Part shown: positions 1,367 through 21,839 of the stretch, in pieces
Layout of the letters: every line of letters begins with the position of its first letter
Position numbering within the stretch: position 1 is the first letter of the stretch
Assembly: GCA_965248055.1 (NCBI GenBank)
Contig: CBDFIJ010000004.1
Span: 1 to 64,000 of the forward strand
From: Candidatus Multivoradales bacterium
GTDB taxonomy: Bacteria > Acidobacteriota > Thermoanaerobaculia > Multivoradales > JAHEKO01
Reading direction: 5' to 3'
DNA length: 64,000 nucleotides
Position numbers and translations under genes: made by a program
Notes under the pieces: model-generated
The model's database searches: none
Seen by the model: only the letters and a program-made list of their open reading frames with translations
Told to the model about the DNA's origin: nothing

Positions 1367-1404
<38 letters not shown>

Positions 1405-1768
1405 TCAAGATTTGTACACACCATGTAGGTGGATATGTGTACCTTTATTTGCCTCTGAAAGTAAAGAAAAAAAAAATCTGAGGCCTTTATTTTTTTTTAT
1501 GATGTCTGACTGCATAGAACCAAGAATTCAGAACCATGAAAACCCAATTGGGGGAACACTCCACCTCCCCATAAAAAAAGAAAGAAAAATATGAAGAAAA
1601 CTCAAGACTGCATTTCAGTCAAAATTAATTATTTATGTGGCTGTCTTGTGATGTGACTAATAGAGTTTACACTGTACTTTATACAATGTTACACTTTCTA
1701 GATTATAAATGTTTTAAAAATAAAATGATTTATCATGAGCCAGGGGGGTGGGGGTACTCACCCTGGAA

Positions 1769-3637: not shown

Positions 3638-3964
3638 AGAGAGTCTCCCCCCCCCCCCCCCCATGCCCATTCAGACTTGATAAAAGTACAGTCATAGGGC
3701 AGTAATTAGCGACTTCCGTCGTATGAGGAACACCACTGGTCATCATTTCATTTGTCCACTCTTTTCTTTGTGTGTGTTTCTAGGACAAAGATATACATAC
3801 GTGTATAAATCACTGATTCAAATTATACTGTTGTGTCATTGTTTCACAATCATTTGTGACTCGCTAAGCCAGAAATAAAATAGCCTACCTAAAAAATGTA
3901 CACAATGGTCATTCATGTCCTTGTGTGCAGGTGGGGAGATGTTATGGAATATTGATCTTATTTA

Positions 3965-4690
3965 GGGTGCGTTGATAGCAACATTTTCTGGCTAGAAACA
4001 TGGTTTTGAAACCGTGTTTTGTGGTTTACAAAATCTTATAAACGGTAGTCATAAATTTACTGTTTTGAAACACGGTTTTGAAACGCACAAAAAGGTGCGA
4101 TTCAATACCGTGTTTCTCTTAGACTAGAAACACAGTTTTGAAAATCTTATAAATGCAACAGCAATCTCAAACACGGTTTAAATGACATCACAGTTGCGTT
4201 GCATAAAATATATATACTTCCGGGTCGACCGAAAACGGCGCACCGCACGCACTGAAAGGTAAACATTTCAATTGTATGACATGGACACATACATGTTTTG
4301 TAGAGAACGCGATATTAATCCGGTCAGCATTTAGTTAGTTTAGATATTGATGAAAATGAGTTGCTGCACTGCCAAAGGCAGCAATTGGAGCGACCCAGAA
4401 CTCAGGACTTTGCTGACAATGTGGGCTCAGCCTGAAGTCCAAGCGGAAATTAACGGAATGACACGGAAAAAACCTGTGTTTCGAGAGTGATCGAGATCGA
4501 AAAGCGTGCGCCCTGTTTGACCTTTTGCCAAGGGACAAGCTGCGCAGAATGAGATGCACAATGGCACAGTCCGAGAGAGCCAGAAATACGCTCGGGAGAA
4601 AACTCTATAAATGCTCTTCTGTAAAACTGTGTTTCAAATCCGTGTTTCAAAACCGTGGTTCTCAGTACGCAAAATCTTATAATCGCAGCC
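3965..4690. mobile_element. PIF/Harbinger non-autonomous element
   Basis: TTA on both sides (3962-3964, 4691-4693); imperfect TIR GGGTGCGTTGATA ... TATAATCGCAGCC; subterminal GGTTTTGAAA / TTTCAAAACC repeats; internal Myb/SANT-like fragment. Confidence 0.7.
4356..4490 (+). pseudogene. Myb/SANT-like DNA-binding domain fragment (Harbinger ORF2 type)
   Basis: My translation: MSCCTAKGSNWSDPELRTLLTMWAQPEVQAEINGMTRKKPVFRE*, matching the W-S/T-x-x-E...L...W...I/V-Q pattern of Myb/SANT-like domains. Confidence 0.65.
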
Positions 4691-5620
4691 TTAGATAGAT
4701 TGTTTATCATCGATGATAACCTAGCATGGATGATGAAAATTTAATCTTGTAATAGTTGAAGTGTAAATTTCGAACCGAGCTTGAAAAACTCCAAAGAAAA
4801 CAGAAAGATTATTGTACTATTCATATGTTAACTTAAAGCCACAAGATAGTTTTAGTGAATTCAACAATTTTTTTCTTGATCTTCAGAAAGTGCAGGAAAT
4901 TATCAGAAAACATCATCAGACCTTCCTGCAATTGTTTTGAATGACATATTGTAATGCAATATTGCCCAATGGAAAATTATCATTATTTACATAACCAGTA
5001 TGGCAAAGTGTTCGGGGGGACTCCGAACATTTTTATGTTTGGGTTATTTACTGAAAATGGAAGCATTTCGGAGCGAACTGTTATTAACAGGGTATTAATA
5101 CATGTAGTTCATACAACTCTATAAAATTCTGCATTAACAAAAACAAAAAAATATTAATTTTCATTTTCACCATGAAGAACAAAAAACGAATGTGCATTCG
5201 GATACTGTCCAATTGAACACAAAACAGACAGACCATCCGACCACTCTTCATACAGTTACATTTACATGCAATATTCCGAAAGAGGCATCTTGCTGGTGTT
5301 GCTGCATAGCCATGCTTCAATCGTTTACCTTTCTAAATAAACAATAGCCTATTATTAAATATATTATCACAATATCTATTTCATACCACGTGCTTTTAAA
5401 TCACTACTTATTTCAAACCAGTTTTGAATCCTCTCATGTATGTTAGGCTATTAATAAAGATTTTTTGACAGCAATCCATCTCTGACTTTCTGATGCCGTG
5501 GTCCCCTATAATGCTTTAAAAAAGTGGTTCCATTCAAATATTAGGTAGGCTATGGGTCTCCTGAATAGTAAAGCACAAAAATGATTTCGCTTACATATGC
5601 TTGAATCGCAGGTCCTCGAG

Positions 5621-6307
5621 GCGGACCGGACGGCAACAAAGAACTGATCGCTGTTGAAGACGGTTACCGGGAGAGTGAGGCGTCATGGCTGGAGCTGTTG
5701 CGAGGCCTGGAAGCAAGAGGCCTTACATTCGAGCCTAAGATCGCAATCGGTGACGGCAATCTGGGTTTCTGGAAGGCTCTGGCTCAGGTGTGGGGAAATA
5801 CCAAGACCCAGCGCTGCTGGGTCCACAAGACGGCCAACGTCTTGAATAAGCTCCCCAAGGCGATCCAGCCCAAGGCCAAGCAGGCAATCCACCAAATCTG
5901 GATGGCGCAGACACGTCACGATGCCGAGAGGGCTTTTGATGCATTCCAGGCAATCTACCAAGCTAAATATCCGAAAGCAGTCCAGTGCTTGGTCAAAGAT
6001 CGCGTCCAGCTACTCGCTTTCTACGATTTCCCGGCTGAGCACTGGGTGCATTTGAGGACCACCAACCCAATCGAATCAACTTTTGCTACCGTACGCTTGA
6101 GAACCTCCAAAACCCGGGGCTGTCTGTCGCGAGAAACCATGCTCTCGATGGTCTTCAAGCTGTGCCAAAGCGCAGAAAAACGATGGCGGAGGCTACAGGG
6201 CTACAGGCGCATTGCCGAAGTCGTTGAAGGTCTCCAGTTCGTGGACGGAGAAAAACAAAAACAGATCGCCGCCTGATGGCTCAATACACAACTTTTGACA
6301 ATAACTC
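5621..6307 (+). mobile_element. IS256-family element, 5'-truncated copy (transposase C-terminal part ends at 6276)
   Basis: Matches the 3' half of the full copy at 62217-63585; QRCWVHK and LRTTNPIES motifs; right IR TACACAACTTTTGACAATAACTC ends at 6307. Confidence 0.95.
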
Positions 6308-7196
6308 AAATCCGTTCTACAGGGGCCTCATGCGCATCAAGACAACCGGAGAAATCTTTGACGGCATTCACGAGCCGTTAATCTCCACCGCACTATTTGA
6401 CCGTGTCCGAGAGGTAGCTTCTGGAAGGCTTCAGACGAGAGCCATTCAGCACAGGCACATGTTTCGTAGGTTATTTTCCTGCGTTCACTGCGGCAAGACG
6501 CTCATCGGTGAACTCCAGAAGGGGCACGTCTACTATCGATGCCATTCAAAGAGTTGCCCAACCAAGACCATCCGCGAAGAAGCAATCGATGAAACGATCG
6601 GGAGAGAGCTGTTTCGACTTGCGATTCCTCAAGATCACCAAGAGAAACTGTTCAGGACTCTCGATCTCTGCTTGAGGAATTCAACCGGAATCGAAGAACA
6701 CAGACTTGCCGTGCTCAGCGCCGAGCGAGAGCGAATCTCCGTTCGCATTGACCGACTTATGGAGACCTATCTCGATGGCTCCATCGACAAGGCCACATTT
6801 ACGGATCAGCACGGGCGTCTACTCAAGAAGCGCAAGACAGTGGAGGAAGGGCTAAACGGCGCCGATGGACGCATCGAACGAGATCTTGAAGAAACTCGCC
6901 GATACCTCGAACTCGCATTTGGGGCTTCGTTGACCTACGGCGTGGCTTCCAATGCGAAAAAACGTGAGTTCACCGAACTCTACACCTCGAACCGAACCGT
7001 CAATCGACGAAACGTGACCGTTGAGCTGCGTGAACCCTTCTCGACGCTAGTCTGCGCCGAGGGTTTCTCGGAATGTGAACAAACTCGGGAAGTACCTCGA
7101 ACTCGGATCGACGGTATTTCGGATTCAGTCATCAGAAGCACTCCAAAGTGGTGTGCACACATTATCGATGCCTTTCTCCGCTTTGCCAAGGGATAG
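6308..7196 (+). pseudogene. Large serine recombinase, C-terminal part (recombinase domain end, Zn ribbon, coiled coil), disrupted by IS256
   Basis: NPFYRG, HEPLIS..LFDRV, CVHCG...YYRC..C Zn ribbon, coiled coil; catalytic N-terminus absent. Confidence 0.85.
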
Positions 7197-7213: not shown

Positions 7214-10200
7214 TCACGGACTACAGAGCACCTCGAACGCAGCATTGAAGGTTTCATGCAGATACACGCTCGTACTAGCAAGAAGCTCAAGTTGGGGCTG
7301 GCTCACTTTACTCTTTGATAGCCCAGGTTGGGCGATCATGATTTTCAGTGATGGCTTCAAGAGTCTCGCCGAGTCTTCGAGTTCGTACAACTTTTGCGCA
7401 TGACCAATCTCGAACCCACTACGTCCTACACGCGCGTACCGTCGTTTCTCTCGCCTGATTAGATTCCGGAAAAATGAAGGCACACTTCGTCTGGCACGTA
7501 CTGACTTCTGCGCCTGGCCGCAAACGTCGTACAAGTCATCTATGCGCGCACCAGGAAAATCTCTGCTTGAATACTTGCAGTGCACTAGGCAGATCTTTAG
7601 CTCTCGTCCATCAACACGGATTGCTACGATGTCTGCTATCTCACCGGGACCATCGTCATCTACTACCACATCCCACGCAGCAATCGATCGGATGTGCTCA
7701 ATCGTCCGTCTTTGAATCGAGTCGGGTTTCTTGTCGGCACCCTGTGATTCCACCTGCAAATTAACCCCGGTCCAGTCAACCACAGTGAGTTCTTCAGGAT
7801 CGTAAGGGGGCAACTCTCGATTCGGCTTTAGCAACAAACCTGGCGGCACAACAACCGCGTCTTGCTCGAACAGGAGTGTCAACCCGCGATCCTGAAGAAA
7901 CTCGCTGAGTGGTGTGTTGCTGTCGGCCCTTTGGACAAGTACATCTGTTCCTGTTGGGATGTAACTGATTCTGTCACCAGGAAATGTCACGACGTACGGG
8001 GCACGCCATTGAGGTGTAACAACGTCAAAAGAAATTGGATCAGAGACCGAGAAGGAGGTCAGCTCAAGATCGGCGTCGATTAGGGGCCAGGTCGAGTTTT
8101 CATAATGAAGCTCCAACGACTCTGTGGGTCGGAGATGAATATTCCATGGCCACTCAATTCCCAGTGGCACCAGATTTGGCCGAGATTCAACCACTTCGGG
8201 TCGTATGAAATGCTCGAACACCGAGTCAATATCGATACTGTCATCAACTAGTTTTTGACCCGCCGCCCTACACCAATCTACCCACTCGCTGAGGTTTCCT
8301 GCGACCCGGTAACTCCAGATTCGGCCCTTGAGTGAAGCACCGAAACTGACCTTTATTCCGTTCTCGAAACCATAGGCGAAGATGTTGGTCTTCGTCTTGG
8401 TCTGGGCTTCTGCGACCGGAAAGCCCTCTGTCACATCAGCGCCCACGTGCATAGAAAATCGACGACTAGCGTTTCGAACATCCAAGACTCCAACATTGGT
8501 TGGAACCAATCGCTTCACTTCCGCCAACAACCGGTAGACTTTTTCACCGGTAATGCGGGTCGCACTCTCTCCACAGACGGCTTTTGCAAGCTTCTCATGA
8601 AGGCTCTTGGTGGTAGAGCTGTTTATGTACAGAATCTGTTGTTGATCGTCCCAATATAGGACGTATAGGTCATAAGAGAGTTCTTCCACAGTTCGCAGAT
8701 GGCCCCATCGAACTGGAGTGCGGTTTTCACTGACAAACCAAGCAACAGCCTCTGCTTGGTTGATAATAATCTCTTCAGTCAGCAGTCTCCCGAAGAGCTC
8801 ACGGGCTTTGTTTGGCTTCCAGTTAGTACACTCCGTCCGATAAGCAACTGCGCTCATCTTCGGAAGAAGATTCCTAATTGAGACCGTATCCGAAATCGCT
8901 TGAAAACCTTGCTCAAATTCGCTGAGCTTCTCTTGTTCCTCCACTGCTGACTCGGACAGGTCGCGAATCAGAAGGTTCCAATCTGCATCTTCAGCGTACA
9001 GTCCACTCAGATTCACATCGTAGGAGCCTTCCGGTCGCCCGACTACGACTGTTGCCTCACTCGCCGGACCCTCGGTCGGTCGAGCGAAGCGACCGATAAA
9101 TTGGAGAGTGACGCCTAGGCTCTTGTGCGGGTCGTGGATTGCAGCCACCTTCAAGGCAGGCAGGTCGAAACCCTCTCCGAGCATGTCAACGCAAAGAATT
9201 ATCCGGCTTGTCCGGTCGTCGATCACTCGTAGCGCCTCACGTCGTTCTGCAACGCGTAGGCCGCTATGAAGTACTACCGGATAAAACTCGGGGGCAATTT
9301 CTTCATAGAGGTGAAGAATCTCCCTGACGCGACCAATGCGTTTCGTGCGCGCCATCAGAAGGTGATCAAGTCCATTCCTGACGTCCCGACGGAGGTGCTT
9401 GACAGCTTCGAGCGCAATCGCTCGATCTGGGTCCAAGAAAGCAACTATGGAACGGTAGTTGATGGAAGCGAAGTACCCATCATTCTGTGCTTCGCGGAGG
9501 GGAAAGTTGTACGCGAGTCGCCCACCTAGGTGACGACCATCTTCTCTAAAAGGTGTCGCGGTGAACTGCACTATGGGTTTACCAACAAAGGTGTCGCATG
9601 TCTCTCGCCAGGTGCGCGCGGCGATGTGGTGCGCTTCATCGACGAATAGATGGCTACATTCTTTGAGCAGCGTCATCTTAGTCTCTGGTGTTGATGCGTT
9701 GAGTGCGTTGGGTGTCGTGATGATGACGTTGCATGACTTGGCGAAATGGGTAGCTTTCTCTTGGGAGAGAAAGGCATGCCGAATTTGGCCAACGGCTAAG
9801 TGATGCACTTGCGAGTTGAGGCAGCCTAAGTCTTTCAGGATCCCCCAAGTCTCAAACTTCTTTGCTATCTGTTCCCGAAGGGCGTTTGAAGGAACTAACA
9901 CCAAGAGTAAATCTGGCCGTACCGCTGCGGTCACCGCCAGCATGGTTTCCGTCTTACCCGTGCCAGTCGGCATGACTATCGTGATTGGCTCACTTGAGCC
10001 GGTAGTCCAATCGGCTAGAATCGCATGAACAGCTCCGACCTGAGGACGACGGAGTCCTCCGCGATCTCGATCCTCATTGGATTCAACCAATGAAAAGTTG
10101 TCAACGAGCGACGCAAGTACAGCTTCCCGACTATGAAAGACGGCTTGCTGACCGTCTCGAGCCGGGAACTGCTGCCGGACTGGATTACGGTCGACTGAGA

Positions 10201-10228
10201 GCCCCGCGGGGGCTTGGTTCTTATTCAC
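7214..10228 (-). CDS. SF2 (DEAD/DEAH, ResIII-like) helicase fused to a C-terminal PD-(D/E)XK-like nuclease; candidate anti-phage protein
   Basis: MPTGTGKT, DEAHH, TATPFREDG, DMLGEGFD, QFIGRFAR helicase motifs; C-terminal DDGPGEIADIV...LVHCKYS. Confidence 0.8.
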   Translation of the reverse strand: MNKNQAPAGLSVDRNPVRQQFPARDGQQAVFHSREAVLASLVDNFSLVESNEDRDRGGLRRPQVGAVHAILADWTTGSSEPITIVMPTGTGKTETMLAVTAAVRPDLLLVLVPSNALREQIAKKFETWGILKDLGCLNSQVHHLAVGQIRHAFLSQEKATHFAKSCNVIITTPNALNASTPETKMTLLKECSHLFVDEAHHIAARTWRETCDTFVGKPIVQFTATPFREDGRHLGGRLAYNFPLREAQNDGYFASINYRSIVAFLDPDRAIALEAVKHLRRDVRNGLDHLLMARTKRIGRVREILHLYEEIAPEFYPVVLHSGLRVAERREALRVIDDRTSRIILCVDMLGEGFDLPALKVAAIHDPHKSLGVTLQFIGRFARPTEGPASEATVVVGRPEGSYDVNLSGLYAEDADWNLLIRDLSESAVEEQEKLSEFEQGFQAISDTVSIRNLLPKMSAVAYRTECTNWKPNKARELFGRLLTEEIIINQAEAVAWFVSENRTPVRWGHLRTVEELSYDLYVLYWDDQQQILYINSSTTKSLHEKLAKAVCGESATRITGEKVYRLLAEVKRLVPTNVGVLDVRNASRRFSMHVGADVTEGFPVAEAQTKTKTNIFAYGFENGIKVSFGASLKGRIWSYRVAGNLSEWVDWCRAAGQKLVDDSIDIDSVFEHFIRPEVVESRPNLVPLGIEWPWNIHLRPTESLELHYENSTWPLIDADLELTSFSVSDPISFDVVTPQWRAPYVVTFPGDRISYIPTGTDVLVQRADSNTPLSEFLQDRGLTLLFEQDAVVVPPGLLLKPNRELPPYDPEELTVVDWTGVNLQVESQGADKKPDSIQRRTIEHIRSIAAWDVVVDDDGPGEIADIVAIRVDGRELKICLVHCKYSSRDFPGARIDDLYDVCGQAQKSVRARRSVPSFFRNLIRREKRRYARVGRSGFEIGHAQKLYELEDSARLLKPSLKIMIAQPGLSKSKVSQPQLELLASTSVYLHETFNAAFEVLCSP

Positions 10229-10370: not shown

Positions 10371-11211
10371 ATGGGCCGCCTGCTTAGGTTGATAGCCGAT
10401 TGGGCAGTAGACGATGGGTTTCTCGACTTTCAGAACCGTGTTGTCGCCGAGTTCTACGACGCGTTAGATCGAGGCTTCTCCAAAGGAGAAAACGAGGTGT
10501 CACTTGTGTCTCGCCTTGTTTCAGCGGCTGATGGTGAACGCTATGGTCCTATTCGGCTTCACGCCGCAATGCTCCACGGAACACGTTCGTACGTTGAGTT
10601 CAACTACCGAGACAAACCTGTCACGAAAGAGCTGGGTGACATGATTTTGGTCACACTTGTAACAGCGGGAAGAAAGCGAATTCTTCAAAGGCTCTCAATC
10701 GTTCAAAATAAGAAGAGTAGTGGGAAGTCGTGGCCCATTGATCAAGAGCAGCTATTTTTGCTCAAAAAACTTTCCACCGTTCATGGGTAGCAAGGGTATC
10801 TTTCGTGGGGTGAAGGATTTCGCGTTTCGAAACCGAAGTGGCTGCCTTGGTTCGTTTGGCTTCCTGTCGCCGCCGGGCGAGATGTTGTTCGTGGCAGTGC
10901 CCCTCGTATCTGAGATGCAGAAGGGTAGGAAGTCTCTGGCGCTAGCAAATATCTCGCATCCTACGAAGAATCACGGCCACAGTAGCTCAAGCAGCCTGTG
11001 GAGAACTACCGAGCCGTCTCTTCTTGGACTGCACCCGAAAGACTGGCACTGTTTTCTGCGAGAGTTCGACACAAGTGGGTTGACGGCTCCATTCTCTTTC
11101 GGCTCTCTATTTGGTTTCTTGGGTAATGTCCGTTTTGCCAGAGATCTTTACGACTTGACTCGGGCTTACACCCAACTAGGCATTGGAGAACTCACTCGTG
11201 TTGGGGATTAA
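10371..11211 (+). pseudogene. Frameshifted hypothetical gene, possible PD-(D/E)XK-fold nuclease
   Basis: Two overlapping ORFs join (LFLLK-NFPPF) if one A is removed from A6 at 10764-10769; ELGD...IVQNKK motif. Confidence 0.55.
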
Positions 11212-11516: not shown

Positions 11517-12254
11517 ATGCGCCAACTTTTAGTCAGTGTGCGAGGTTCGAATGAGGCGATTGCGGCGGCAAAGGGCGGGGCGCACATCGCGGATGTCGAG
11601 TTCCCGGCCTCCGCTCTGGGAACGCCTTATCCGCTAAACATCAAAGCTGTACGCGAAGAGCTAGACCGCAGTGGTTTTGGCCAAGTACACATATCGACGA
11701 ATATTGGTGAAGAGCAGCCGGTTAGAAGCACAGCTTGCCAAGCTGCACTTGGTGTTGCCCTCGCAGGTGCCGACTACGTCAAATGCGGGCTTGCCGGATT
11801 GTCCCTTTCTGCCGCGTCATACTTGGGGCGGAACTTGGTTCGTACGGTCAGAGAGTGGTTTCCGGAAAAGAAGGTCTATCCAGCAGTTTTCGCAGACGAT
11901 GAACTTGCACACGTGTTCAACCCTCTAGTCGATGGCCCAGAGCTCGTGCGAGAAATCGACTGTGACGGTTTGTTGATTGATACCTTTGACAAGCACCTTG
12001 GAAAAGGGCTATTAGACTACTATTCAGTTTTGCAGATAGCCGACTTCGTGGCTAATCTCCACGAGCGCGGCAAGGAAGTCTGGCTGGCTGGCAGTGTGAC
12101 ACACAAGCAGCTGTTTGATCTTTGGACGACTGGCGTCGATGTGGTTTGTGTAAGGGGCGCAGCTTGTCTCCCGAGCGAAGCACCTAGATTCGGAAGGATC
12201 TCTTCAAAGACAGTCTCCGATCTCGTCGGGACCATGCCGACTGCGGAAACATGA
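11517..12254 (+). CDS. MfnB/DUF556-like TIM-barrel protein ((5-formylfuran-3-yl)methyl phosphate synthase homologue)
   Basis: LLVSV...EA..A..GGAHIADV, GADYVKCGL, AVFAD, LLIDTFDK, LAGS, DVVCVRGAAC match the family; GAGAGG RBS. Confidence 0.8.
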   Translation: MRQLLVSVRGSNEAIAAAKGGAHIADVEFPASALGTPYPLNIKAVREELDRSGFGQVHISTNIGEEQPVRSTACQAALGVALAGADYVKCGLAGLSLSAASYLGRNLVRTVREWFPEKKVYPAVFADDELAHVFNPLVDGPELVREIDCDGLLIDTFDKHLGKGLLDYYSVLQIADFVANLHERGKEVWLAGSVTHKQLFDLWTTGVDVVCVRGAACLPSEAPRFGRISSKTVSDLVGTMPTAET

Positions 12255-12298
12255 GGCTACCCCAAAGTAGTCCGCGATGACGGGGGCGATGACTGGCT

Positions 12299-15200
12299 AT
12301 GAAGAAGGGTCGTAGGAAGCGCCGCCCTCGAGGGCGGGCGGGTGGGCGAGCAGGTGGTGCCGGCTACGACTTTCAGGACGTTTACGTTGCGCGCCAGCTT
12401 GCGCGGCTGCTAGTTGATACAGGAGGGGATAGTCCAATCGAGGTCCTGTGGGAAAAGAAGGACATCGAGTGGGAGCCTGGTGAGGGTGTGGAGTCGGTCT
12501 TCGTGGATGATGTCGTAGTGCGCTTTCGCAGCGGCAAGACGATCTACACTCAAGTCAAGGAAACGAGTCCGTCAGGTAGGTGGACCGTCCGAGAGTTAGC
12601 GAGAAGTAAGATAGCTAGCGATTTCTGGCGGCAATGGAATGCCAGGGCTGCAGAAGAACGAAGCAAGACAGTCCTTCGACTTGCGAGTGTGTCAGATGTC
12701 AGTAACCTTAGGCATGTTGTTGACGTGGCGCAACGCGCGCGAACGCCAGCGGAGCTTCTAGGGGCCGATGCATCGGCAGAAACCGTCGAGGACATTAAGG
12801 CACTGAGCACTGCACTGGGTATTCAATCGACAAGTCCTGAACTTCTGTCGTTTCTCAAATCCCTTGATGGAGAGCAACTACCGCCAGCTGACGATCTCGA
12901 ACGGTGGGTGTCTATAGAACTTACTGCTTGTGGTGCCGAAGCGGCTGCCCTGGCACGCCATTTGATCAGGCTCGTTGCAAAGAGCAAGCACGTTGGATCC
13001 ACGGCTCGATCAGCCTACAGCAAAGACAGCCTTGCTAGCGAGTTGCGCGCTGAGGAGGTCCCTGACCATGTCCTGCTTAGCATCGGAGCTCTAGAGACTC
13101 CGTGTGTCACAGACGAGACAGTCTGGGATGAATATCGCGCGCAGGTCGTTAAGCAGCATCGGACACTTCCAGTCTATGGATTAGAGGATGATCGTCCACT
13201 GTTCGTCGATCTGGCGATGTTGTATGTTGCCCTGAAGCTCGCCCCGCTCACGACTGACCATACGGCCGGTAATTCTAATAAGGCCCCGAGGACGGACACA
13301 CGTTCAATCACTGAGAGGCTTCGCGACGAAGCTCGGTTGGAGGATTCTGAGGACCCAGGGGAGAGCCGTAACGATAGTATTTCCCTCGCGGAGGTGCTAC
13401 AGAAAAATCGGCGTGTTGCACTTGTTGGTGGGCCCGGAAGCGGCAAGACCTTGACACTTCGTTGGCTTGCTCTCATCTCGGCGTTGCCCAACGACGAGGG
13501 CAGAGCACTTCGTCTGAAGTGCGGCTTATCGTCAGAGCCGCTGGTGCCTGTATATGTGCGCTTCCGCCAGCTCGCAGACCACGCTTGGGAGCGGGGATTC
13601 GAAAGCGTCAACTGGAGAGCTGAGCTAGTTGTCGACTTTCTCGCGGCCCAACTTGAGACGAGCCTTGTTGTGTCTTCGCAGAGTCGGCAGCAGGCGGTCG
13701 CATTCGCTCGAGGATTGCTTGACTCAGAAAGAGCAATCTTCCTCCTCGACGGGCTTGATGAGGTCACCGACCAAGCAATACGCAATCGACTGCTCGATGC
13801 TGTATCCGACTTGATAACAACATCGGAGAAACCTAGATTTGTCTCATCTTGGCGGCCCTACGCTCTGCAGCGAGATCTTTCTGCCCTAGACCTGGCGCTA
13901 TTCGAGCCACTGCCCTTTGATCGATCGGACCGCGCCGCTTTTGCTCACCAGTGGTATGAAGCCGTTCGCTCTGCATCACCAAGGATGCGGGAACAGAATG
14001 CTATCGCTGAGCGGACTGATGATCTTGCAAAGGCGGCGGAGTCTCTACGAGACCTAGCACAGAACCCCCTTCTCTATTCGATCCTTGCTCTGGTCCATTT
14101 CCATGGTGGGAACGTGCCTTTGCAGAGAGCTGCTCTGTACGATCGGGCGACGCTCGCGATGCTCGGCCATTGGGATCGCGACAAAAGGGGTCGCAATCTC
14201 GGCGCAGAGGCAGGACCAGCCGACTTGGGGCAACCACTAGACGAAGATCTACTACGGCCTCTTGTAGAAGATCTGGCGCACCATGTTCAATGTACGGAAA
14301 GTGCCGTGGAGTTCCAGACCGGTACAGCGACCGAGGTTATCGAGGAAGGTCTCCAACGTGTTCTCGACACCGCAGAGCCGGCCAAGCCAGACCAGTCCAC
14401 AGTTCTCGTGAACTACCTAGTGGAGCGGTCAGGACTGCTTCAAGAACGACGGCCAGGAGTTCTTGCCTTCTCACACCTGAGTTTTCAGGAGTATCTTGCT
14501 GCTCGTTGGTTTGTCGGGCGAGACGAGGTCGCCACTGACGATCTCGCGTTTCTTGCCAAGGATGAAGGTCAGTCTGAAGTTGTCCGGTTTGCGATCGCGA
14601 TCCTAGGACGACGCAAGGGAACCCGATCGCGGCATGCAGCTCGTGCGCTCGTCGAGCAAGTCGCCTCTGAGAATTCTCTTCTTGCGGCGGCAAGTCTTGT
14701 GGAAACGCCAGACATGGAGATGTCGTCGCGAGTCGCAACTCAGCTAGCTCGCGATCTCTGGTACGACTCCACCGATCCAAGGCGCCATCACTCTATACAT
14801 CCGAGGGTATTTCGGAAGCTGTTCTGGCGGGTTCTCGCGGACGTGGAAAAGCCAGACCAGATTCTCTTGGAGGTGCTTGCATCTGGAGAATCTGAGGGAC
14901 GCCACCCGATGGAATCGGAACTTGGATTAGAACTGTTGGCGTTTCGCCCACCGTCTCCACTGTCTGAAGAATTAGCTTGGTTTCTTCGGCGGCTGGCATC
15001 GCTGGAGAAACGACGAGAGCACTACCCGGCGGGCGATCTGGCGAGTCTTATCACTGTTGAAGCAGGTGCCTCATCTGCGGCCGACCACTTGCCAGCTCTA
15101 GTACGACTTCTAAGTTGGCAAGACTGGCGCCGTGGGAGGCAGCGGGAGGCGCCAGCCCCCTCCAAGCGAGCAGAGGAACTCATCGGGGAAGTCCTTCTCG

Positions 15201-17617
15201 ACGAGCAGACGAGAGGCGCCTCGCTTTCTTCGCTCAGAACGTGTCTAGTCGACACCCAAACGAGAGGACGGTCAAGCAGGCACGTTGCACGTATGATGCT
15301 TAGCTTCGGTGAGCCTTTGACCGACACTATCGTCGATGTGCTCATCGAAGGTTATCTCTACTACCCAGATGAACACGAACACGGTCTGGCGGCGCTTGAA
15401 GAAGTCTCACAGACTCCGCACTCCCGGGCAGCAATCGAAGCGGGCGCGAAGCGGGGTCTAACCAACGAGGATCGAGATGTGCGGCTCGGGTGTTTTCGAC
15501 TTCTGCGCGAGCGCGCCGTTCCTTGGTCAAGTCAGCTTTCCGCCGTCGAAGATGAACGTGAAACGGTATCGCGATACGAAGATCTGCTTGAGGATCCTAA
15601 AACGGCGGCCGAAGCACTCGAGATGCTCGGCGATAAACTCTGGGAAGAAGATGATGAATTGTCTTGGCAAGCGGCTCGGGCGCTGATCGACTCGGGTAAC
15701 GAGGATGTTCCGGGCTTGACACACGCTTTGGTGAACGCTGGTCTTTGCTCCGGAGACCGACGACCAGTTGCTAACGCCGATTTGCAAAGGCTGCGCTCAG
15801 ATTCCAGCCTTGGCCTAGCTGTGCGCGCCAGTCTTCTAGCTGGCCTCCGAAGTGAGAGCGGAGCTGTGGCCACGGGGTCCGCAATTCTGCTTCTAGCCGC
15901 GAAAGACATCGCGAGCGAAACACGGATGATATCCATAGTTCGGGCGGCTCTCAAGGACCCGACACAGCTCCGTGATGCAATGCCATACTTAGAAGAACTG
16001 CTCGGTGATACGTCCAGCCGAACAGCGACTCAGAGTGCCCTAGGTCAGTACTTCGAGGCAAAGAACGCGAACGCCGAGACCACATCGGTTCTTGCGATCA
16101 AGCTGGCGGAACTGGGTTACCTGGACGCCCCAAGTCTTGCTCAAGGCTTGGTTTTCGGCGCTCTCTCCGATGCGCTACAACACGGGCGTGCGGTCGTCCT
16201 TCTGCGTCGCATGTTGGATGACCCGAGTCTAGTAACGGAAGTTCGTCGTGCGTTGGCTCGTGGGCTCGAGTCGGAAGATCGGGCAATAGCCTGGGGAGCC
16301 GCGCGGTGTCTGTGGAAGGCGGGGAGCCGTGCAGATCCTAAGCTACCATCAGCCCTTGTTCGCGTTGGACTGTCAGGTGAAACCACGAAAGAAGACGCTC
16401 GAGCTTGGCTACTAGAACTCCTCGCTCATAGTCGTACGGCCGAGAACGTTCGTACTGCTCTAGAACGAGAGTGTGAGACTTACCGTTACCAAGACGAATC
16501 GAAAAAGGACCACGATCTCGCATGGGAGATTGCATGTTGCTTTCGATTGGGTAAGCTCTTTCATCCTGAATATTTCCCGATGATGCTTGTGTGGGGTGGG
16601 GTAGCTCGGGAGGAACGGCACGCAGAGGCAATCGCCACTATCAAGGAGCTGTCTGAATCGGAGACGTGGCTCGCGGGGCAACTGGAGAGCGAGCTTCTGA
16701 AGGCATTAGCGTCGAGCAACAAAGAAATTGCCTCAGGAGCTGCGCGGACACTGTACGAGCTTAGGTCATCCGGGAGGAAGCAGCAGCTACCAGACCCAAT
16801 CTTGAATGAACAGGAACCAAAAGCCCTGGAGATAGCTGGTCGATTCATCCGCATTGTGCTTCGCGAACGTGAGCGGGAATCGTGGGCTGAGGGTTTCCTT
16901 GCAGATCTCGCTCACCAGGGTCCTGAGACTCTTGGCAGACGGGCTGTACTGAAGCTCCTGGAAGGCGGTAGTGTGACCAGTGCCTACAGGGCTGCACGAT
17001 TTCAGCTTGAGCTGAAGGCGTTGAACGAACCCGGCCTGAGTATGGCGATTGTCTCGGGAGGATTAGGGTCACCTGACTGTTTCGAGGAAGCGGCAGTGGC
17101 GCTAGACAGCCTTCGGAGCGAACCATCGACTGCGGCACTTGCCTCTCAAGCGCTCAACAGGGCTTTGTGGAGTGATAGTCATGCCGCCGCGCTGGGCGCG
17201 GCTGTTTATTTGACGGATCGAGGAGAAATCGACAATCCCGGTGTTGGGAGGGGGCTTGTTTTCGGTGGGTTCGAACACGGAGCTTGGCGCGATGCGCGCG
17301 CACGAAAGAGACTCCAAGTGTTGCTTGACGAGCCTGCTACTCGTGGCGCAGCAGTTGAAGCTCTACAGGTTGCAGTCCATCAAGGCCATCCCATTCAGCG
17401 CCTTGAACAATCCTCCCTTCTTATTCGTGTCGGAGAAATCCTCCTGTACCCGATGCTTGAATGTTTCGCAGAGATATCTCAATGGCATGCCGTCGGCCCC
17501 TTGGCCGTGCTAGCTAGAACAGGTCGCGCTGCGGAGGTTCGAAATGCCGCCGCCCAATTGGGACTCTCGCGACTCGTTGAGATCATAGGAGATGGGCCTT
17601 GTCCAGGCGAATCGTGA
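12299..17617 (+). CDS. NACHT (STAND) NTPase with N-terminal Cap4/restriction-like nuclease and C-terminal helical repeats (bacterial NLR/Avs-like)
   Basis: GYDFQD...DDVVV...YTQVKE nuclease motif; Walker A GGPGSGKT; Walker B LLDGLDE; NPLL; FSHLSFQEYLAARW; repeated helical units. Confidence 0.85.
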   Translation: MKKGRRKRRPRGRAGGRAGGAGYDFQDVYVARQLARLLVDTGGDSPIEVLWEKKDIEWEPGEGVESVFVDDVVVRFRSGKTIYTQVKETSPSGRWTVRELARSKIASDFWRQWNARAAEERSKTVLRLASVSDVSNLRHVVDVAQRARTPAELLGADASAETVEDIKALSTALGIQSTSPELLSFLKSLDGEQLPPADDLERWVSIELTACGAEAAALARHLIRLVAKSKHVGSTARSAYSKDSLASELRAEEVPDHVLLSIGALETPCVTDETVWDEYRAQVVKQHRTLPVYGLEDDRPLFVDLAMLYVALKLAPLTTDHTAGNSNKAPRTDTRSITERLRDEARLEDSEDPGESRNDSISLAEVLQKNRRVALVGGPGSGKTLTLRWLALISALPNDEGRALRLKCGLSSEPLVPVYVRFRQLADHAWERGFESVNWRAELVVDFLAAQLETSLVVSSQSRQQAVAFARGLLDSERAIFLLDGLDEVTDQAIRNRLLDAVSDLITTSEKPRFVSSWRPYALQRDLSALDLALFEPLPFDRSDRAAFAHQWYEAVRSASPRMREQNAIAERTDDLAKAAESLRDLAQNPLLYSILALVHFHGGNVPLQRAALYDRATLAMLGHWDRDKRGRNLGAEAGPADLGQPLDEDLLRPLVEDLAHHVQCTESAVEFQTGTATEVIEEGLQRVLDTAEPAKPDQSTVLVNYLVERSGLLQERRPGVLAFSHLSFQEYLAARWFVGRDEVATDDLAFLAKDEGQSEVVRFAIAILGRRKGTRSRHAARALVEQVASENSLLAAASLVETPDMEMSSRVATQLARDLWYDSTDPRRHHSIHPRVFRKLFWRVLADVEKPDQILLEVLASGESEGRHPMESELGLELLAFRPPSPLSEELAWFLRRLASLEKRREHYPAGDLASLITVEAGASSAADHLPALVRLLSWQDWRRGRQREAPAPSKRAEELIGEVLLDEQTRGASLSSLRTCLVDTQTRGRSSRHVARMMLSFGEPLTDTIVDVLIEGYLYYPDEHEHGLAALEEVSQTPHSRAAIEAGAKRGLTNEDRDVRLGCFRLLRERAVPWSSQLSAVEDERETVSRYEDLLEDPKTAAEALEMLGDKLWEEDDELSWQAARALIDSGNEDVPGLTHALVNAGLCSGDRRPVANADLQRLRSDSSLGLAVRASLLAGLRSESGAVATGSAILLLAAKDIASETRMISIVRAALKDPTQLRDAMPYLEELLGDTSSRTATQSALGQYFEAKNANAETTSVLAIKLAELGYLDAPSLAQGLVFGALSDALQHGRAVVLLRRMLDDPSLVTEVRRALARGLESEDRAIAWGAARCLWKAGSRADPKLPSALVRVGLSGETTKEDARAWLLELLAHSRTAENVRTALERECETYRYQDESKKDHDLAWEIACCFRLGKLFHPEYFPMMLVWGGVAREERHAEAIATIKELSESETWLAGQLESELLKALASSNKEIASGAARTLYELRSSGRKQQLPDPILNEQEPKALEIAGRFIRIVLRERERESWAEGFLADLAHQGPETLGRRAVLKLLEGGSVTSAYRAARFQLELKALNEPGLSMAIVSGGLGSPDCFEEAAVALDSLRSEPSTAALASQALNRALWSDSHAAALGAAVYLTDRGEIDNPGVGRGLVFGGFEHGAWRDARARKRLQVLLDEPATRGAAVEALQVAVHQGHPIQRLEQSSLLIRVGEILLYPMLECFAEISQWHAVGPLAVLARTGRAAEVRNAAAQLGLSRLVEIIGDGPCPGES

Positions 17618-17618
17618 G

Positions 17619-17656
17619 TCCGGTACGGCCCGGAATCGATTCCGGGCCGTACCGGA
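17619..17656. repeat. Perfect 38-bp palindrome
   Basis: TCCGGTACGGCCCGGAATC|GATTCCGGGCCGTACCGGA. Confidence 0.95.
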
Positions 17657-17787
17657 TCAGGCTGATCCTCCCCAATTTAGGACAAATTTCAAAATCAGTA
17701 ACTAGCTTCCAACGTGGACGGGCTGTGGGACTTCGCAATCCAACAGATCCAGCTTGCGCGATCTCCAAAATGGCATACACTGAAAAC

Positions 17788-17992
17788 GTGACAAGAACTG
17801 AGATAACCGAACAGGCACTTGCCCTGCCTGAGAGCGAACGAGTCGAGCCTCATGCCACCACTTCTCGATTGGCAGAAGGAAACTCTCGACGAAGCACTCG
17901 AAGAGTACAAGCGTCACCCGAATAGTGGCCGACCAGCCGACGAAGTCATTGCCGAGCTCCGCGCAGAACTTAGCGCTCGACGTAAGAACTAA
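17788..17992 (+). pseudogene. Addiction-module antitoxin (TIGR02574-like), frameshifted or internally deleted
   Basis: VTRTEITEQALALPESERVE then, in another frame, PLLDWQKETLDEALEEYKRHPNSGRPADEVIAELR*. Confidence 0.7.
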
Positions 17993-18004
17993 GACTAACT
18001 CTCC

Positions 18005-18294
18005 ATGGAGTTCACCGTTCACAAGTGGGCGCGTTTCGACTTGCGCTAGGCGGGCGATTAATACGACAACAGAGAAGCGCATCTCGGTCATCGGTTCCTA
18101 GACGAGTACGAGACAAAGCTGGCGTAACCTCAGCTGATTTGCTGAAGGTGCTCCTTTCGTCTACGGAGAGTACGACGACTCTCCATGCTGGTGTTCAACC
18201 ACGGTATCTTCTACATTATGCAGAACGAACAAACCATCCATATTCTTCGCGTCCTCCACGACTCGGTGAGCCCGAGCAGTGGCCGAGAGGGTAG
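18005..18294 (+). pseudogene. ParE/RelE-family toxin pseudogene
   Basis: MEFTVHKWARFDLR*AGD*YDNREAHLGHRFLDEY...RRLSMLVFNHGIFY...IHILRVLHDS; in-frame stops. Confidence 0.7.
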
Positions 18295-18303: not shown

Positions 18304-19140
18304 CTAGTCGTTGGTCGCGGAGCGATTGAAAGAAGCCTTGAGCTCTTCCTTCGTACTAGGTCGATCCATGACGAACTGTCTCCACCAGCGGTTGATCCCG
18401 TGAAAGTTTAGGCCGAACCTACGAATCAGGCGAACTTTGGTGTATCGCTGTAATATGGGGTCCTTCAGCATGAACCGAAGACGAACAAAAACCTGTTCGT
18501 AAGCCATCAGGGTGGCGAGTAGAAAAAGGAAAGGTAGAAAGAAAACAGTGAGGATGAGAGGCAGGAGAAGTTCGACGAGCGTGTCCAGCTGGGCAAAGGC
18601 CCAAAAGTCTGTATAGATTTTGTGGGTCGCATAGATCAGAAGACCAAAGCCAAATGTCGCCATGAACCCGTTCAAGAACAAGCGGACAGGTTTGTATTCT
18701 TCATTCAACTCGGCCACCACCAGAAGGCAAGAAAGTACAGTGATGATAGGAACCAATATGAATTCGAGGAATAGGTTGAAAACGTAGAAGTTGACGATGA
18801 ACTCTAGGACTACACTGATGCGTGCACCATCGAGTATCGCCTTCCGAAAATAGTGTTCGTCGTCAGCAGACGTTACATTAAAGATCATTACAAGGGCGGC
18901 TGTTAGAAACCATAGCACCGCGACTTTTGCGTTAGCCCATCGCCAGACTCCAAGCTGGTGCAGGCACCCAACAATGAGTGCCATCCACGCGAACGCCGTG
19001 AGCACAGCAGTCACCAGCTTCCATGCAAGAGCTGCTCGAACGACTCCTGTCATGCCTTTGCGAATTGGTGCTGTCGACAACCCCCAAAGCAAACAGACCA
19101 TCAGCCAAACGAGGATCGCAATTTCGCGGTTGTTGAGCAT
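18304..19140 (-). CDS. Multi-pass membrane protein, hypothetical
   Basis: About 7 hydrophobic segments; start overlaps the integrase stop (TAATG). Confidence 0.75.
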   Translation of the reverse strand: MLNNREIAILVWLMVCLLWGLSTAPIRKGMTGVVRAALAWKLVTAVLTAFAWMALIVGCLHQLGVWRWANAKVAVLWFLTAALVMIFNVTSADDEHYFRKAILDGARISVVLEFIVNFYVFNLFLEFILVPIITVLSCLLVVAELNEEYKPVRLFLNGFMATFGFGLLIYATHKIYTDFWAFAQLDTLVELLLPLILTVFFLPFLFLLATLMAYEQVFVRLRFMLKDPILQRYTKVRLIRRFGLNFHGINRWWRQFVMDRPSTKEELKASFNRSATND

Positions 19141-20363
19141 TACTTCAAGGTACGCTTTTTTATTGCCTCCAGCATCACACTGGCTCGTTCGTTTGCTGCT
19201 CGCTTCAGTGCATTCGGTGCAAAGTGTGCGTAGATCTCGGTTGCTTGTCGTGAGCGGTGACCGACGTTCTTGCCTGCCATTTCGAGCGACGCACCACGGG
19301 AGACATCCCAGCTCACGACGTTATGTCGGAGGTCATGTAACCGCAGCGCACCGAGGCCGTCGAGATCGTCGAGGCCTGCAGCTTTTCTGATTTGCTTCCA
19401 CGTCTTCTTGATCGTGGTCAAGTGTCCTGTTGATCCCGTTCCAGGGAAGATGTATGGACATCCCGTGATTCGTTCTAGACCTCCAAGCACCCGCAGAGCC
19501 TCGCTAGGAACCTGACGGTATTCTTCTGCCGCAGCTTTGGTTCTGAGTAGTTTTGCGAGTCCAGTCTCAAAGCTAACGTTGCCGCATTCCAGGCCGAGCA
19601 CCTCACTGATCCGCCAGCCGGTCCAGAAGGTGAAACGGATCGCTGCGCAAGAGTACGGGTCACCGCCTTTCGTTTCGTGTTCGTCAACCGCCTGGAGAAG
19701 GGCGCCCATCTGGTGGGGAGTGAGCATCACATCTTTCTTCGCACCCCTCGATTCCTCCGGGTAGCGGTCGATGTGTACGATGGGGTTGGTGTGCTGCTTT
19801 CGCCAGCCCCACGCTTCAGCCTGATTGAATGACTGCTGCAAGACGGAGAGCATGCGGTTGGCCGTGTACGGAGTCTTGCGGAGGTTTTGGTGCAACCGCT
19901 CGATGTCCGCTCGTTTGACCTCATCAACACGTTTCTTTCCGAGCTTGGGAACGATGTGGCAACGGATGAGGCTTTCGTAGCCGCGAATCGTTGAGGCCGT
20001 GGGTGGCTTTTTCTTACTTGGGAGATAGCCCGTCAGAAAGCGCTCGGTCAGTTCAGCTACATTGTGGTGGCCCCCGCGTCTCCATTTCTCGGCCGGGTCT
20101 TTGCCTTTCTTAGCCTCAAGCAACAGAGTTGTTGCCAACTGGCGGGCCTGTTCTGCGGACATCGGGCCATGTTTCCCCAGCGTGATGCGGTGTGGTGCGG
20201 TTTTCCAATCATCTACTCGATTGCGGTATTGGAGCAGATATACCTTGCGACCCGTGGGCGTTATCTTGCAGCCAAAGCCAGAAACTTCTGTATCCCAAAT
20301 AAAGAGGTCACGCTCTCCAGGCTTGGTCTTGTCGACTACTGATTTGGTGATTCTGCGGCGCAT
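19140..20363 (-). CDS. Tyrosine recombinase/integrase with N-terminal arm-DNA-binding domain
   Basis: WDTEVSGFG arm domain; TGWRISE (R), HDLRH, GH, EIYAH (Y); next to a tRNA-derived att site. Confidence 0.92.
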   Translation of the reverse strand: MRRRITKSVVDKTKPGERDLFIWDTEVSGFGCKITPTGRKVYLLQYRNRVDDWKTAPHRITLGKHGPMSAEQARQLATTLLLEAKKGKDPAEKWRRGGHHNVAELTERFLTGYLPSKKKPPTASTIRGYESLIRCHIVPKLGKKRVDEVKRADIERLHQNLRKTPYTANRMLSVLQQSFNQAEAWGWRKQHTNPIVHIDRYPEESRGAKKDVMLTPHQMGALLQAVDEHETKGGDPYSCAAIRFTFWTGWRISEVLGLECGNVSFETGLAKLLRTKAAAEEYRQVPSEALRVLGGLERITGCPYIFPGTGSTGHLTTIKKTWKQIRKAAGLDDLDGLGALRLHDLRHNVVSWDVSRGASLEMAGKNVGHRSRQATEIYAHFAPNALKRAANERASVMLEAIKKRTLK

Positions 20364-20372
20364 CAAAACTTT

Positions 20373-20499: not shown

Positions 20500-20546
20500 G
20501 ACTTGTAATCAGCAGGTCCTCGGTTCGAATCCGAGTGCCGGCTCCA
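20500..20546 (+). other. att site: 3' half of tRNA-Thr(TGT)
   Basis: GACTTGTAATCAGCAGGTCCTCGGTTCGAATCCGAGTGCCGGCTCCA has the anticodon loop, T arm and CCA; no D arm or 5' acceptor strand upstream. Confidence 0.85.
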
Positions 20547-20588
20547 TAGTTCAAGTTTCGAGATTGACGAACTGGGCTCTTCCAGGCA

Positions 20589-21839
20589 TGACCTAGATCA
20601 AACACCTGTGAGACAGAGTCGTTAGTCGCCGAGGCTGTGGGGGATGTGGGAATCTCGTGAGAGATTTTCAAGGGCTGTGGGAAGGCAAGCGTAGCTGGCT
20701 TTCCACCAGCCCATCATCATCCACAGCCTTGACAAGTAAAAAGGGGGCCAAGATCCTTCGGGTCTATCGAATAACCCAAAACGAAGGGAGGCCCCCAGAT
20801 GCAAATCGTCGCACTCGATCCAAGTTTCTACAAGTACTACCGTGAAGACATCGTTGTCTTAAGCTCTCAGGCTCGTGATCGGCTGCGCTTGGTTGCGAGC
20901 TTCGAGCAACTACGCGACAAGGGGATCTCGGGTGAAAAAGCAGCTCAGATCTTGGGCAAGAGTCGAGCTACCCTTTACCGCTGGCGCAAACGCCTTGAGC
21001 GTGGCCCCCGACATCTAGAACCGATATCAAGCCGACCCAAGCGGGTGCGTAAGGCTGACTGGTCACCTGAATTGGTACAGAGAGTCGAAAGTCTCCGTCG
21101 GGACTTTCCTGCCTGGGGCAAGGAAACCTAGCGCCGCTGATCCAGGGCGAGGGCTTTGAGGTATCAGAAGCCACTGTCGGGCGTATCTTGCGCAAATTGA
21201 TGGATCGAGGGGTAATCCACCGGGTACGCTACCGGCGCCAGAAGTACAAAAACTCCCGGCGTATGCGCCGGCTCCACGCTCAGCGACTGCCGAAATGGTG
21301 TCCCCGACCAACGCGCCCTGGCGAGCGACTGCAGATCGACACGCTGCATCTGGTCCCTGCTCCAGGCAAGTGGCTCAAACACTTTTCAGCCTCCTGTCCG
21401 GTCAGCCGGTGGACAGTGGGAGAGATCTATCAACGTGCCACTTCTCGCTGTGCAGCACGCTTTCTAGACAAAGTCATTGCCGAGTGTCCGTTTGACATCA
21501 CCTCGATCCAAGTGGACGGTGGTAGTGAATTTATGGATGAATTTGAGAAAGCCTGCCGAGATAGAGGCATCACCCTCTATGTGCTGCCGCCAAAGAGTCC
21601 GAAGCTCAACGGCACCGTCGAACGAATGCAGGAAACCTGGAGAGGAGAGTTTTATGAAATGTATGAGCTACCCGATACTGTCTCGGCTTTGAGACCTTAC
21701 ATCCAGAGATTCCAGGACCTCTACAACACCTACAGGCCGCACAAGAGCTTGAAAAGAAAACCCCCGGCAAGGTACCTTCTAAAGCTCGACCCAGGGGTCG
21801 TGCTCCCGCCAACTGTCTCAAAGGTACTGATCTAGGACA
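20589..21839 (+). mobile_element. IS481-like insertion sequence
   Basis: Imperfect IRs TGACCTAGATCAAACACCTGTGAGACAG / CTGTCTCAAAGGTACTGATCTAGGACA; 5-bp TSD AGGCA at 20584-20588 and 21840-21844. Confidence 0.85.
20799..21835 (+). pseudogene. IS481-like DDE (rve) transposase, frameshifted near 21128
   Basis: HTH (SRATLYRWRKR), LQIDT, QVDGGSEF, NGTVER, YNTYRPH; adding one C at ~21128 restores WGKETLAPLI. Confidence 0.8.

Follow-up and report, generated by a model that had tools for sequence, protein, structure and literature searches.

This report concerns a stretch of 64,000 nucleotides (the window) from Candidatus Multivoradales bacterium, a member of the Acidobacteriota (GenBank assembly GCA_965248055.1, contig CBDFIJ010000004.1, positions 1 to 64,000 of the forward strand), and in particular two adjacent genes in it. 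The first encodes a small TIM barrel with the fold of MfnB, the second a protein of 1772 amino acids (aa) with a NACHT NTPase. The pair is best explained, with a probability that we put at roughly 0.55, as an autonomous, Avs-like NACHT nuclease and a promiscuous, separable enzyme of defence islands that were brought into one island. This reading is carried by the domain builds of both proteins, the loss of a lysine from the active site of the barrel, the defence neighbourhoods of the relatives of the barrel, and their changes of neighbour without co-evolution. A preliminary description of the locus had proposed a specific system formed by the two genes.

The pair and its parts are laid out as follows.
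11517..12254, + strand: MfnB-fold TIM barrel of the 'E-type' subfamily, 245 aa (PF04476, alignment to MJ1099, AlphaFold model)
12255..12298, + strand: spacer of 44 bp, with a G-run 11-15 nucleotides before the ATG of the NACHT gene
12299..17617, + strand: predicted single-chain STAND protein, 1772 aa, with Cap4-type nuclease, NACHT NTPase and HEAT-like repeat sensor
12365..13198, + strand: predicted Cap4/DUF4297-type PD-(D/E)xK nuclease domain, approximately residues 23-300 (orthologue alignment, model, Foldseek)
13409..13960, + strand: NACHT NTPase module, residues 371-554 (PF05729; Walker A around K383, NACHT-type Walker B D484-E488)
15383..15802, + strand: best-scoring part of the HEAT/alphaRep-like repeats (alignment profile against the PDB)
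17619..17656, no strand: perfect palindrome of 38 nucleotides directly 3' of the stop codon of the NACHT gene (sequence)

This layout agrees with the preliminary description, which had placed an MfnB-like gene 44 bp upstream of, and on the same strand as, the gene of the 1772-aa protein and had noticed the palindrome behind the pair. No promoter-like or terminator-like site was called in a scan of the spacer. The palindrome occurs once in the 3.4-Mb genome and folds as a 17-bp hairpin (z -5.7 versus shuffles); it is not followed by a T-run and is not listed in the terminator scan, and it is likely a transcript-end hairpin without a U-tract. Both genes are probably part of one transcript. Their GC content at third codon positions (0.545 for the barrel gene and 0.538 for the NACHT gene) is lower than in tuf and rpoB (0.69 and 0.66). 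Recognition of the pair by PADLOC, a check that had been put forward at the outset, did not follow, as neither protein matches a family of PADLOC-DB v2.0.0 (E ≤ 0.01).

By its build, the 1772-aa protein is predicted to be a single-chain sensor of the Avs/bNACHT type, because a Cap4-type nuclease, a NACHT module and HEAT-like repeats are combined in one protein. The same three parts had been proposed from the sequence at first sight, and each of them was recovered by a different route. The NACHT module is recognized by Pfam (PF05729, residues 371-554, E 1.8e-7, 31.6 bits versus a cut-off of 26.7), and PF05729 is equally found in all 23 orthologues that were aligned (best E 8.7e-11). Residues G380, G382, K383 and T384 of Walker A and D484, D487 and E488 of Walker B are invariant in this alignment, as is an N-terminal D71...Q85-x-K87 motif, with D70/D71, Q85 and K87 being invariant or nearly so. 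The nuclease is assigned by its predicted fold. Pfam does not call a nuclease at the N-terminus of the window's own protein, and a match to Cap4_nuclease in only two of the 23 orthologues (best E 0.031) gives weak sequence support. A model of residues 1-340, built by AlphaFold with the orthologue alignment (pLDDT 75.8, pTM 0.69), has Avs3 as its best Foldseek match (8dgc_A, E 6.7e-8, TM 0.51), with further matches to Cap4 (7yia, E 1.4e-6; 6vm5), Hachiman HamA, Lamassu LmuA and DUF4297-HerA (overall E 6.7e-8 to 1e-4). The Atlas feature search agrees with a Cap4-type nuclease, although its score of 0.84 is below the reliable range and is taken as a lead only. The repeat region spans approximately residue 760 to the C-terminus; over residues 1029-1168 the alignment profile matches alphaRep/HEAT-like proteins in the PDB (E 5.7e-7 to 4e-3), and HEAT_2 of Pfam was found in two of the 23 orthologues. 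No signal-receiver domain is evident in the protein from Pfam or from its orthologues.

Approximately 54 near full-length orthologues of the NACHT protein were identified (P0122-P0175); their identity over the first 700 residues is 40-51%, and metagenomes or metagenome-assembled genomes (MAGs) are the source of nearly all of them. Among 401 genomes of the phylum, an orthologue is present in the window's genome only, two others giving NACHT-only matches, and it is absent from the same-genus genome G314. Plasmids likewise contain NACHT-only matches at 26-31% identity and no orthologue, while viral contigs contain no relative of either the NACHT protein or the barrel.

According to the available text of a preprint on such proteins (10.64898/2026.01.04.697583), proteins with a Cap4-STAND-repeat build work alone, tetramerizing on a phage protein. 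They are auto-inhibited through contacts between nuclease, NTPase and sensor, and binding of the phage protein to the repeats leads to the tetramer, in which the nuclease domains assemble. By analogy with Avs3 and Avs7, the HEAT-like repeats of the window's protein would keep it closed until a phage protein is bound. The NACHT module would then oligomerize, and the Cap4-type nuclease domains would assemble and cut DNA, leading to abortive infection.

The barrel matches PF04476 (4HFCP_synth) over residues 4-236 (E 1.8e-40) and is the sole PF04476 copy in the genome, which is 97.7% complete. Its AlphaFold model (pLDDT 92) superposes on MJ1099 (4rc1) with a TM score of 0.89, a root-mean-square deviation of 2.1 Å and 35% identity; in the sequence comparison, MJ1099 is matched with an E of 7.5e-29. 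The NCBIfam cut-offs for MfnB equivalogs are not reached (NF002573, 129 bits versus 341; NF002575, 119.9 bits versus 304). In the alignment to MJ1099, numbered by the printed chain, D26, K89 and D155 take the places of Asp25, Lys85 and Asp151, and Glu28 that of Lys27. Lys27 of MfnB is described in the available text of PMC6604932 as the residue forming a Schiff base, with two lysines and two aspartates being essential. Residues D26, E28, K89, D155 and K159 are present in all 86 subfamily sequences, and the Schiff-base position is occupied by a lysine in nine of 10 canonical PF04476 genes from this phylum. Because this lysine is a glutamate in 86 of 86 sequences, the known MfnB mechanism would be unavailable to the whole subfamily. 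As judged from its residues, the barrel is therefore predicted not to be a working MfnB, and 4-(hydroxymethyl)-2-furancarboxaldehyde phosphate would not be made by the known mechanism.

The genome does not have a methanofuran/tetrahydromethanopterin pathway. Model searches found neither MCH nor FTR_C in the 97.7% complete genome, both models giving matches in methanogen controls. The preliminary description had remarked that other methanofuran or C1 genes were not seen in the window, and this extends to the entire genome; together with the change of Lys27 to Glu28 and the equivalog scores, it bears out the expectation that the barrel is no methanofuran enzyme here. The gene is intact, keeping every invariant column of a 24-sequence barrel alignment. 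The barrel retains the rest of the phosphate-sugar pocket and may act as an enzyme on a small phosphorylated sugar or a nucleotide-derived metabolite that is common to all hosts, adding a defence or defence-supporting activity of its own, whichever sensor adjoins it.

The E-type barrel subfamily is large, unusually conserved and mobile. Its members are 55-73% identical across phyla, a protein search returned at least 120 cluster representatives with 66-73% identity to the barrel, and mean column identity in the 24-sequence alignment is 73%. Close relatives are found in species-representative genomes of Neomarinimicrobiota, Multivoradales (two copies in one MAG), Ignavibacteriaceae, Bacteroidetes, Phycisphaerae and Planctomycetota. 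Within the phylum, PF04476 is present in 16 of 401 sampled genomes, none of them of the same order, and nearly all others are of the canonical type by score and residue. Fusions of the barrel to other domains were not found in the subfamily, the three weak matches (35-37% identity) lying outside it. On plasmids, relatives are present at 31-34% identity only, in Streptomyces and Streptantibioticus. In the literature that was searched, nothing was found on an MfnB-like or PF04476 barrel in phage defence, although supplementary tables of defence-gene surveys, which lay outside the search, may list the family. As far as this literature reaches, the occurrence of the barrel beside many defence systems in uncultured bacteria is undescribed, and the statement that no described system has the present pairing stands.

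The neighbourhood of the barrel was compared in 10 genome loci and the best 80 of 181 metagenome loci. Open reading frames (ORFs) were called crudely (at least 80 aa, the longest winning overlaps) and clustered by BLASTP, and representatives were annotated. Loci L004 (no intact barrel ORF), L010 (a fragment of 98 aa) and L011 (30% identical, K-type, i.e., with the canonical lysine) were dropped and near-duplicates were collapsed to one. This leaves 79 non-redundant loci including the window, of which 73 have at least one flanking ORF. The following were counted within three ORFs of the barrel.
Septu, CBASS or Shedu (any): 37 of 73 loci
Septu: 30 of 73 loci
CBASS: 6 of 73 loci
Shedu: 2 of 73 loci
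DUF6119: 9 of 73 loci
Family of 395 aa without annotation: 7 of 73 loci
DNPH1-like gene: 6 of 73 loci
ResIII helicase of approximately 985 aa, related to the window's helicase: 4 of 73 loci, one of which is the window

The labels are based on PADLOC matches, i.e., PtuA (E 3.9e-59) and PtuB (E 9.2e-44) for Septu, a cyclase, E2 and SAVED-HNH effector for CBASS, and SduA for Shedu. Single loci contain a QatC-like gene, a ZorB-like gene with a 1465-aa TPR protein, a NOV_C helicase or DUF499. In a small control set of 16 PF04476 genes, canonical or distant, the surrounding 71.6 kb contained no Septu, CBASS or Shedu clusters. The link of the barrel family with defence is thus strongly supported. The earlier expectation that homologues of the barrel occur near defence genes holds for these systems but not for the NACHT family of the window, of which a phmmer search against every ORF of the other 90 barrel loci gave no homologue; tblastn equally found none in L002-L011.

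The barrel does not keep to one neighbour. In a tree of 86 barrels, at least 36 changes of neighbour type are needed, where the possible minimum is eight and the mean after shuffling is 50.6; neighbour types are thus clustered to some degree, with many switches. The window's barrel is the sister of that of locus L005 (SH-aLRT 85), within a clade that is mostly Septu-linked. L005 has a complete CBASS operon upstream of its barrel and, downstream (L005:10750-12312), a P-loop protein of 520 aa whose Walker B is of the NACHT type. Mantel tests gave a correlation of 0.64 between PtuA and PtuB (none of 2000 permutations as high), versus 0.18 between barrel and PtuA (22 of 2000) and 0.06 between barrel and PtuB (413 of 2000). 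Mean pairwise distance is 0.37 for the barrel, versus 0.64 for PtuA and 0.70 for PtuB. The barrel thus does not co-evolve with PtuA, its commonest neighbour, and is a separately exchanged, slowly evolving module. Such behaviour agrees with an enzyme whose substrate is a universal small molecule, and poorly with a protein that docks on fast-evolving sensors. When the barrel was co-folded in silico with the C-terminal 755 residues of the NACHT protein only (1018-1772), the score of 0.01 (mark 0.32) spoke neither for nor against a complex. The proposal of a specific, conserved barrel-NACHT system is unsupported, since no relative of the NACHT protein is present in the 90 other barrel loci, neighbours switch, co-evolution with the commonest neighbour is lacking and proteins with a Cap4-STAND-repeat build are known to act on their own.

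A number of points weigh against the reading of the pair as a self-sufficient sensor with a separable enzyme beside it. The 44-bp gap, the common strand and the one hairpin after the second gene fit a single operon, giving the look of a true two-gene system. The sister barrel in L005 also precedes a protein with a NACHT-type Walker B, though no relationship between that protein and the NACHT family of the window emerges from hhalign (probability 1.6%). Overlaps of 1-4 bases between the barrel gene and the next gene are seen in many loci, with partners of different families, which fits an integrated accessory better than a bystander. Moreover, the loci are not a random sample, the neighbouring ORFs are not curated genes, and conserved adjacency of barrel and NACHT protein was judged from the barrel loci only. 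The operon-like layout would suit a system in which the barrel is a bound partner, or a guarded host-like protein or decoy watched by the NACHT repeats. There is precedent for NLR-like sensing through a host protein, as bNACHT25 senses phage through DnaJ (PMC12169576, in its available text) and Avs7 through EF-Tu (10.64898/2026.01.04.697583, likewise). Given the barrel loci without NACHT relative, the free exchange of neighbours without co-evolution, and a barrel subfamily of at least 120 cluster representatives that stands against 54 NACHT orthologues, we regard such a system as quite unlikely. A different partner could be the divergent helicase of 1004 aa at 7214-10228. Distant homologues of this helicase (26-29% identity over the full length; cluster C11) are immediate same-strand neighbours of the barrel in L041, L048/L049 and L084, with one more in L035 at a distance of four ORFs; these barrel copies fall in different clades of the barrel tree. 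In the window, however, the helicase is on the opposite strand, 1.3 kb away, its identity to these homologues is low and the association is limited to the four loci counted above, the window being one of them. A partnership with the helicase is therefore unlikely as well.

A broader alternative is that the barrel is a generic accessory, which makes or removes a small molecule that tunes the adjoining NTPase-based system (Septu, CBASS, Qat-like, helicases or NACHT), so that the two cooperate without binding. A same-strand neighbour lies at most 60 bp from the barrel in 51 of 73 loci, and the tight or overlapping junctions involve many partner families. The very low divergence of the barrel fits a universal small-molecule substrate, and the solved homologue was crystallized with phosphoribosyl pyrophosphate (PRPP) bound (entry title of 4rc1). 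These partners, however, do not have a common chemistry or fold, the barrel often stands between two complete known systems, such as CBASS and Shedu in L069, and the NACHT protein does not have an evident receiver for a signal; this option is possible, at a clearly lower probability than the reading preferred here. More tentatively still, the E-type barrel could be a portable metabolic arm of immunity that plugs into many sensors. It would make a toxic, depleting or signalling product from a nucleotide-derived sugar phosphate, candidates being (deoxy)ribose 5-phosphate and PRPP, derived from a DNPH1-like glycosidase or from nuclease/NTPase action, and would here potentiate or complete the response of the NACHT nuclease. 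At the other extreme, the barrel could be a passenger without a role in defence, either as a relic of a barrel-Septu module or as an unrelated metabolic gene. The nesting of the window's copy in a Septu-linked clade points in this direction, as does the finding by hidden Markov model (HMM) search that the genome does not contain PtuB, the DNPH1-like gene, DUF3326 or the AdoMet_dc-like gene that accompany the barrel elsewhere. A relic would decay, whereas this gene keeps all invariant columns, and an unrelated metabolic gene would not be expected in so consistent a defence neighbourhood; canonical K-type loci, in the 71.6 kb mentioned, do not have these neighbours. A passenger is very unlikely. 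Finally, the barrel was considered as a housekeeping gene at an insertion hotspot among polyamine-type genes. This was rejected as a main explanation, as the order of the block described below is kept beside PtuAB while the flanks differ and the barrel flips.

In the Septu-linked loci, a recurrent block consists of the barrel, PtuA, PtuB, an AdoMet_dc-like gene (approximately 128 aa, PF02675; 16 loci) and DUF3326 (approximately 460 aa; 21 loci), in that order. It is found at L002:8734-13556 and also in L013, L018, L020, L035, L038, L055 and L089, while the barrel is inverted relative to the block in L077, L090 and L091. A gene for a pyridoxal phosphate-dependent Orn/Arg-decarboxylase-like protein adjoins the block in L003, L016 and L023. 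The block may be a Septu variant with a set of enzymes; alternatively, it may be an operon of polyamine type that is prone to insertions. A DNPH1-like gene of approximately 275 aa (cluster C5), with a weak match to Nuc_deoxyrib_tr (E 1.8e-5), comes after it in some loci. The barrel is paired with a putative DNPH1-like N-glycosidase in some loci, the C5 gene being near the barrel in 11 of 91 loci. In genome G364 (L112:1411-3155), an E-type barrel that is 28% identical, with Glu at the Schiff-base position, is directly followed by a DNPH1-like gene that is 52% identical to the metagenome copies; since the C5 gene follows a barrel this divergent, the pairing of barrel and glycosidase appears to be old. 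With the C5 HMM, neither the window, where the best E is 0.0029 at 41792-42061, nor the genome gives a significant match, and the neighbour-cluster HMMs do not find PtuA or PtuB in the window. Searches of PDB sequences gave no match for DUF3326 or for the glycosidase-like protein. In L035 (L035:347-4917), the complete barrel-Septu block is preceded upstream by a second barrel ORF, partial and 165 aa long, which is adjacent to a helicase of 969 aa from the same family as the window's.

The pair sits in a mobile anti-phage island, of which the following further features were identified. The left end of the island lies outside the 64-kb window.
7214..10228, - strand: ResIII/DEAD helicase, 1004 aa, divergent from the pair (Pfam)
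19140..20366, - strand: tyrosine integrase of the island (Pfam Phage_integrase and Arm-DNA-bind_3; 71% DNA match to the integrase at the same site in G314)
20501..20547, + strand: 47-bp 3' fragment of tRNA-Thr(UGU), the attachment-site remnant at the right end of the island (identical 47-mers in G314)

The integrase abuts the tRNA-Thr fragment, which is followed by two broken IS481 ORFs, tRNA-Tyr, tRNA-Gly, tRNA-Thr(GGT) and tuf. In G314, the identical 47-mer is present twice, approximately 10 kb apart, flanking a different island near the tRNA-Tyr of that genome. The 47-mers and the related integrase indicate a recurrent integration site that is occupied by another island in G314, in agreement with the tRNA-integrated island of the preliminary description; neither the barrel gene nor the NACHT gene has a DNA match in G314. 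The sole complete tRNA-Thr(tgt) of the genome lies at C4:329687, and therefore a rearrangement has probably parted the tRNA and the island site. Long matches of the 47-bp fragment (30-mers or longer) are found at C4:321853 and C4:329687, approximately 8 kb apart, which suggests a second island at the complete tRNA-Thr and a past rearrangement between the sites. The broken IS481-family transposase (20799-21835) is split into ORFs of 110 and 215 aa between the attachment-site fragment and tRNA-Tyr, and relatives with 80% identity are present at several sites in G314.

The other cargo of the island, a helicase-nuclease included, had been called defence-like from the outset; a supposed nuclease-like gene and toxin-antitoxin pair found no family match. 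The ORFs at 17702-18091 and 18304-19140 do not match Pfam, PADLOC or NCBIfam. By eye alone, a 57-aa ORF at 17819-17992 resembles a small addiction-module antitoxin, and the 278-aa product of 18304-19140 has the appearance of a multi-pass membrane protein, again without family match. Between helicase and barrel, two small ORFs (10371-10790 and 10720-11211) match no family, are without relatives in the barrel loci and in the rest of the genome, and are doubtful as genes; that they represent a frameshifted glycosidase-like gene was discarded, since the C5 HMM has no match in them. A PDB sequence search with the C-terminal 400 residues of the helicase gave no match. At the start of the contig, positions 1-6000 have a low GC content (35-40% versus 56% for the genome) and few ORFs of at least 80 aa, with fragments of a Mutator-family transposase (5698-6276) and a serine recombinase (6276-7196) coming next. 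Far from the island, at C4:2635306-2636969, the genome contains a DUF6119 homologue, apparently split over two frames; DUF6119 often precedes the barrel elsewhere.

As one more Avs-like sensor, the NACHT protein is ordinary. The interesting part is the barrel, a fold from cofactor synthesis with a re-tooled active site, which is far more conserved than the defence genes that adjoin it and which moves between phyla beside Septu, CBASS, Shedu, Qat-like, helicase and NACHT genes. If the barrel acts in defence, this would point to a metabolite-level layer of immunity common to unrelated systems, and a 245-aa enzyme with a high-confidence model offers a way in. If it is indeed a portable arm, it would represent a new class of enzyme among defence components, one that arose from an aldolase of cofactor biosynthesis through loss of the Schiff-base lysine. 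If it has no role in defence, its distribution still needs explaining.

Compared to known systems, the locus combines familiar and unfamiliar elements. Septu is the commonest neighbour of the barrel family, yet PtuA and PtuB are not part of the window. To our knowledge, no published Septu system includes a barrel gene. The barrel-glycosidase pairs in other loci involve the same barrel subfamily, whereas the window's barrel stands without a glycosidase-like gene. MfnB (MJ1099; 4rc1, 4u9p) has the same fold, and three of its four essential residues are kept in the barrel; unlike MfnB, the barrel has Glu in place of the Schiff-base Lys27, scores below the equivalog cut-offs and sits in defence islands, here in a genome without the methanofuran pathway. 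With the bNACHT NLR-related proteins, the window's NACHT protein shares a NACHT module, a predicted N-terminal effector, a C-terminal sensor region and a sporadic, island-borne distribution, although it has no close relative among named proteins, and its 54 orthologues nearly all come from metagenomes or MAGs. It differs from Avs3 and Avs7 in that its NTPase belongs to the NACHT clade according to Pfam, its sensor appears HEAT/alphaRep-like rather than TPR and it matches no PADLOC model, but its predicted plan is that of both proteins, a single chain with a Cap4-type PD-(D/E)xK nuclease at the N-terminus, a STAND NTPase in the centre and a long sensor of helical repeats at the C-terminus.

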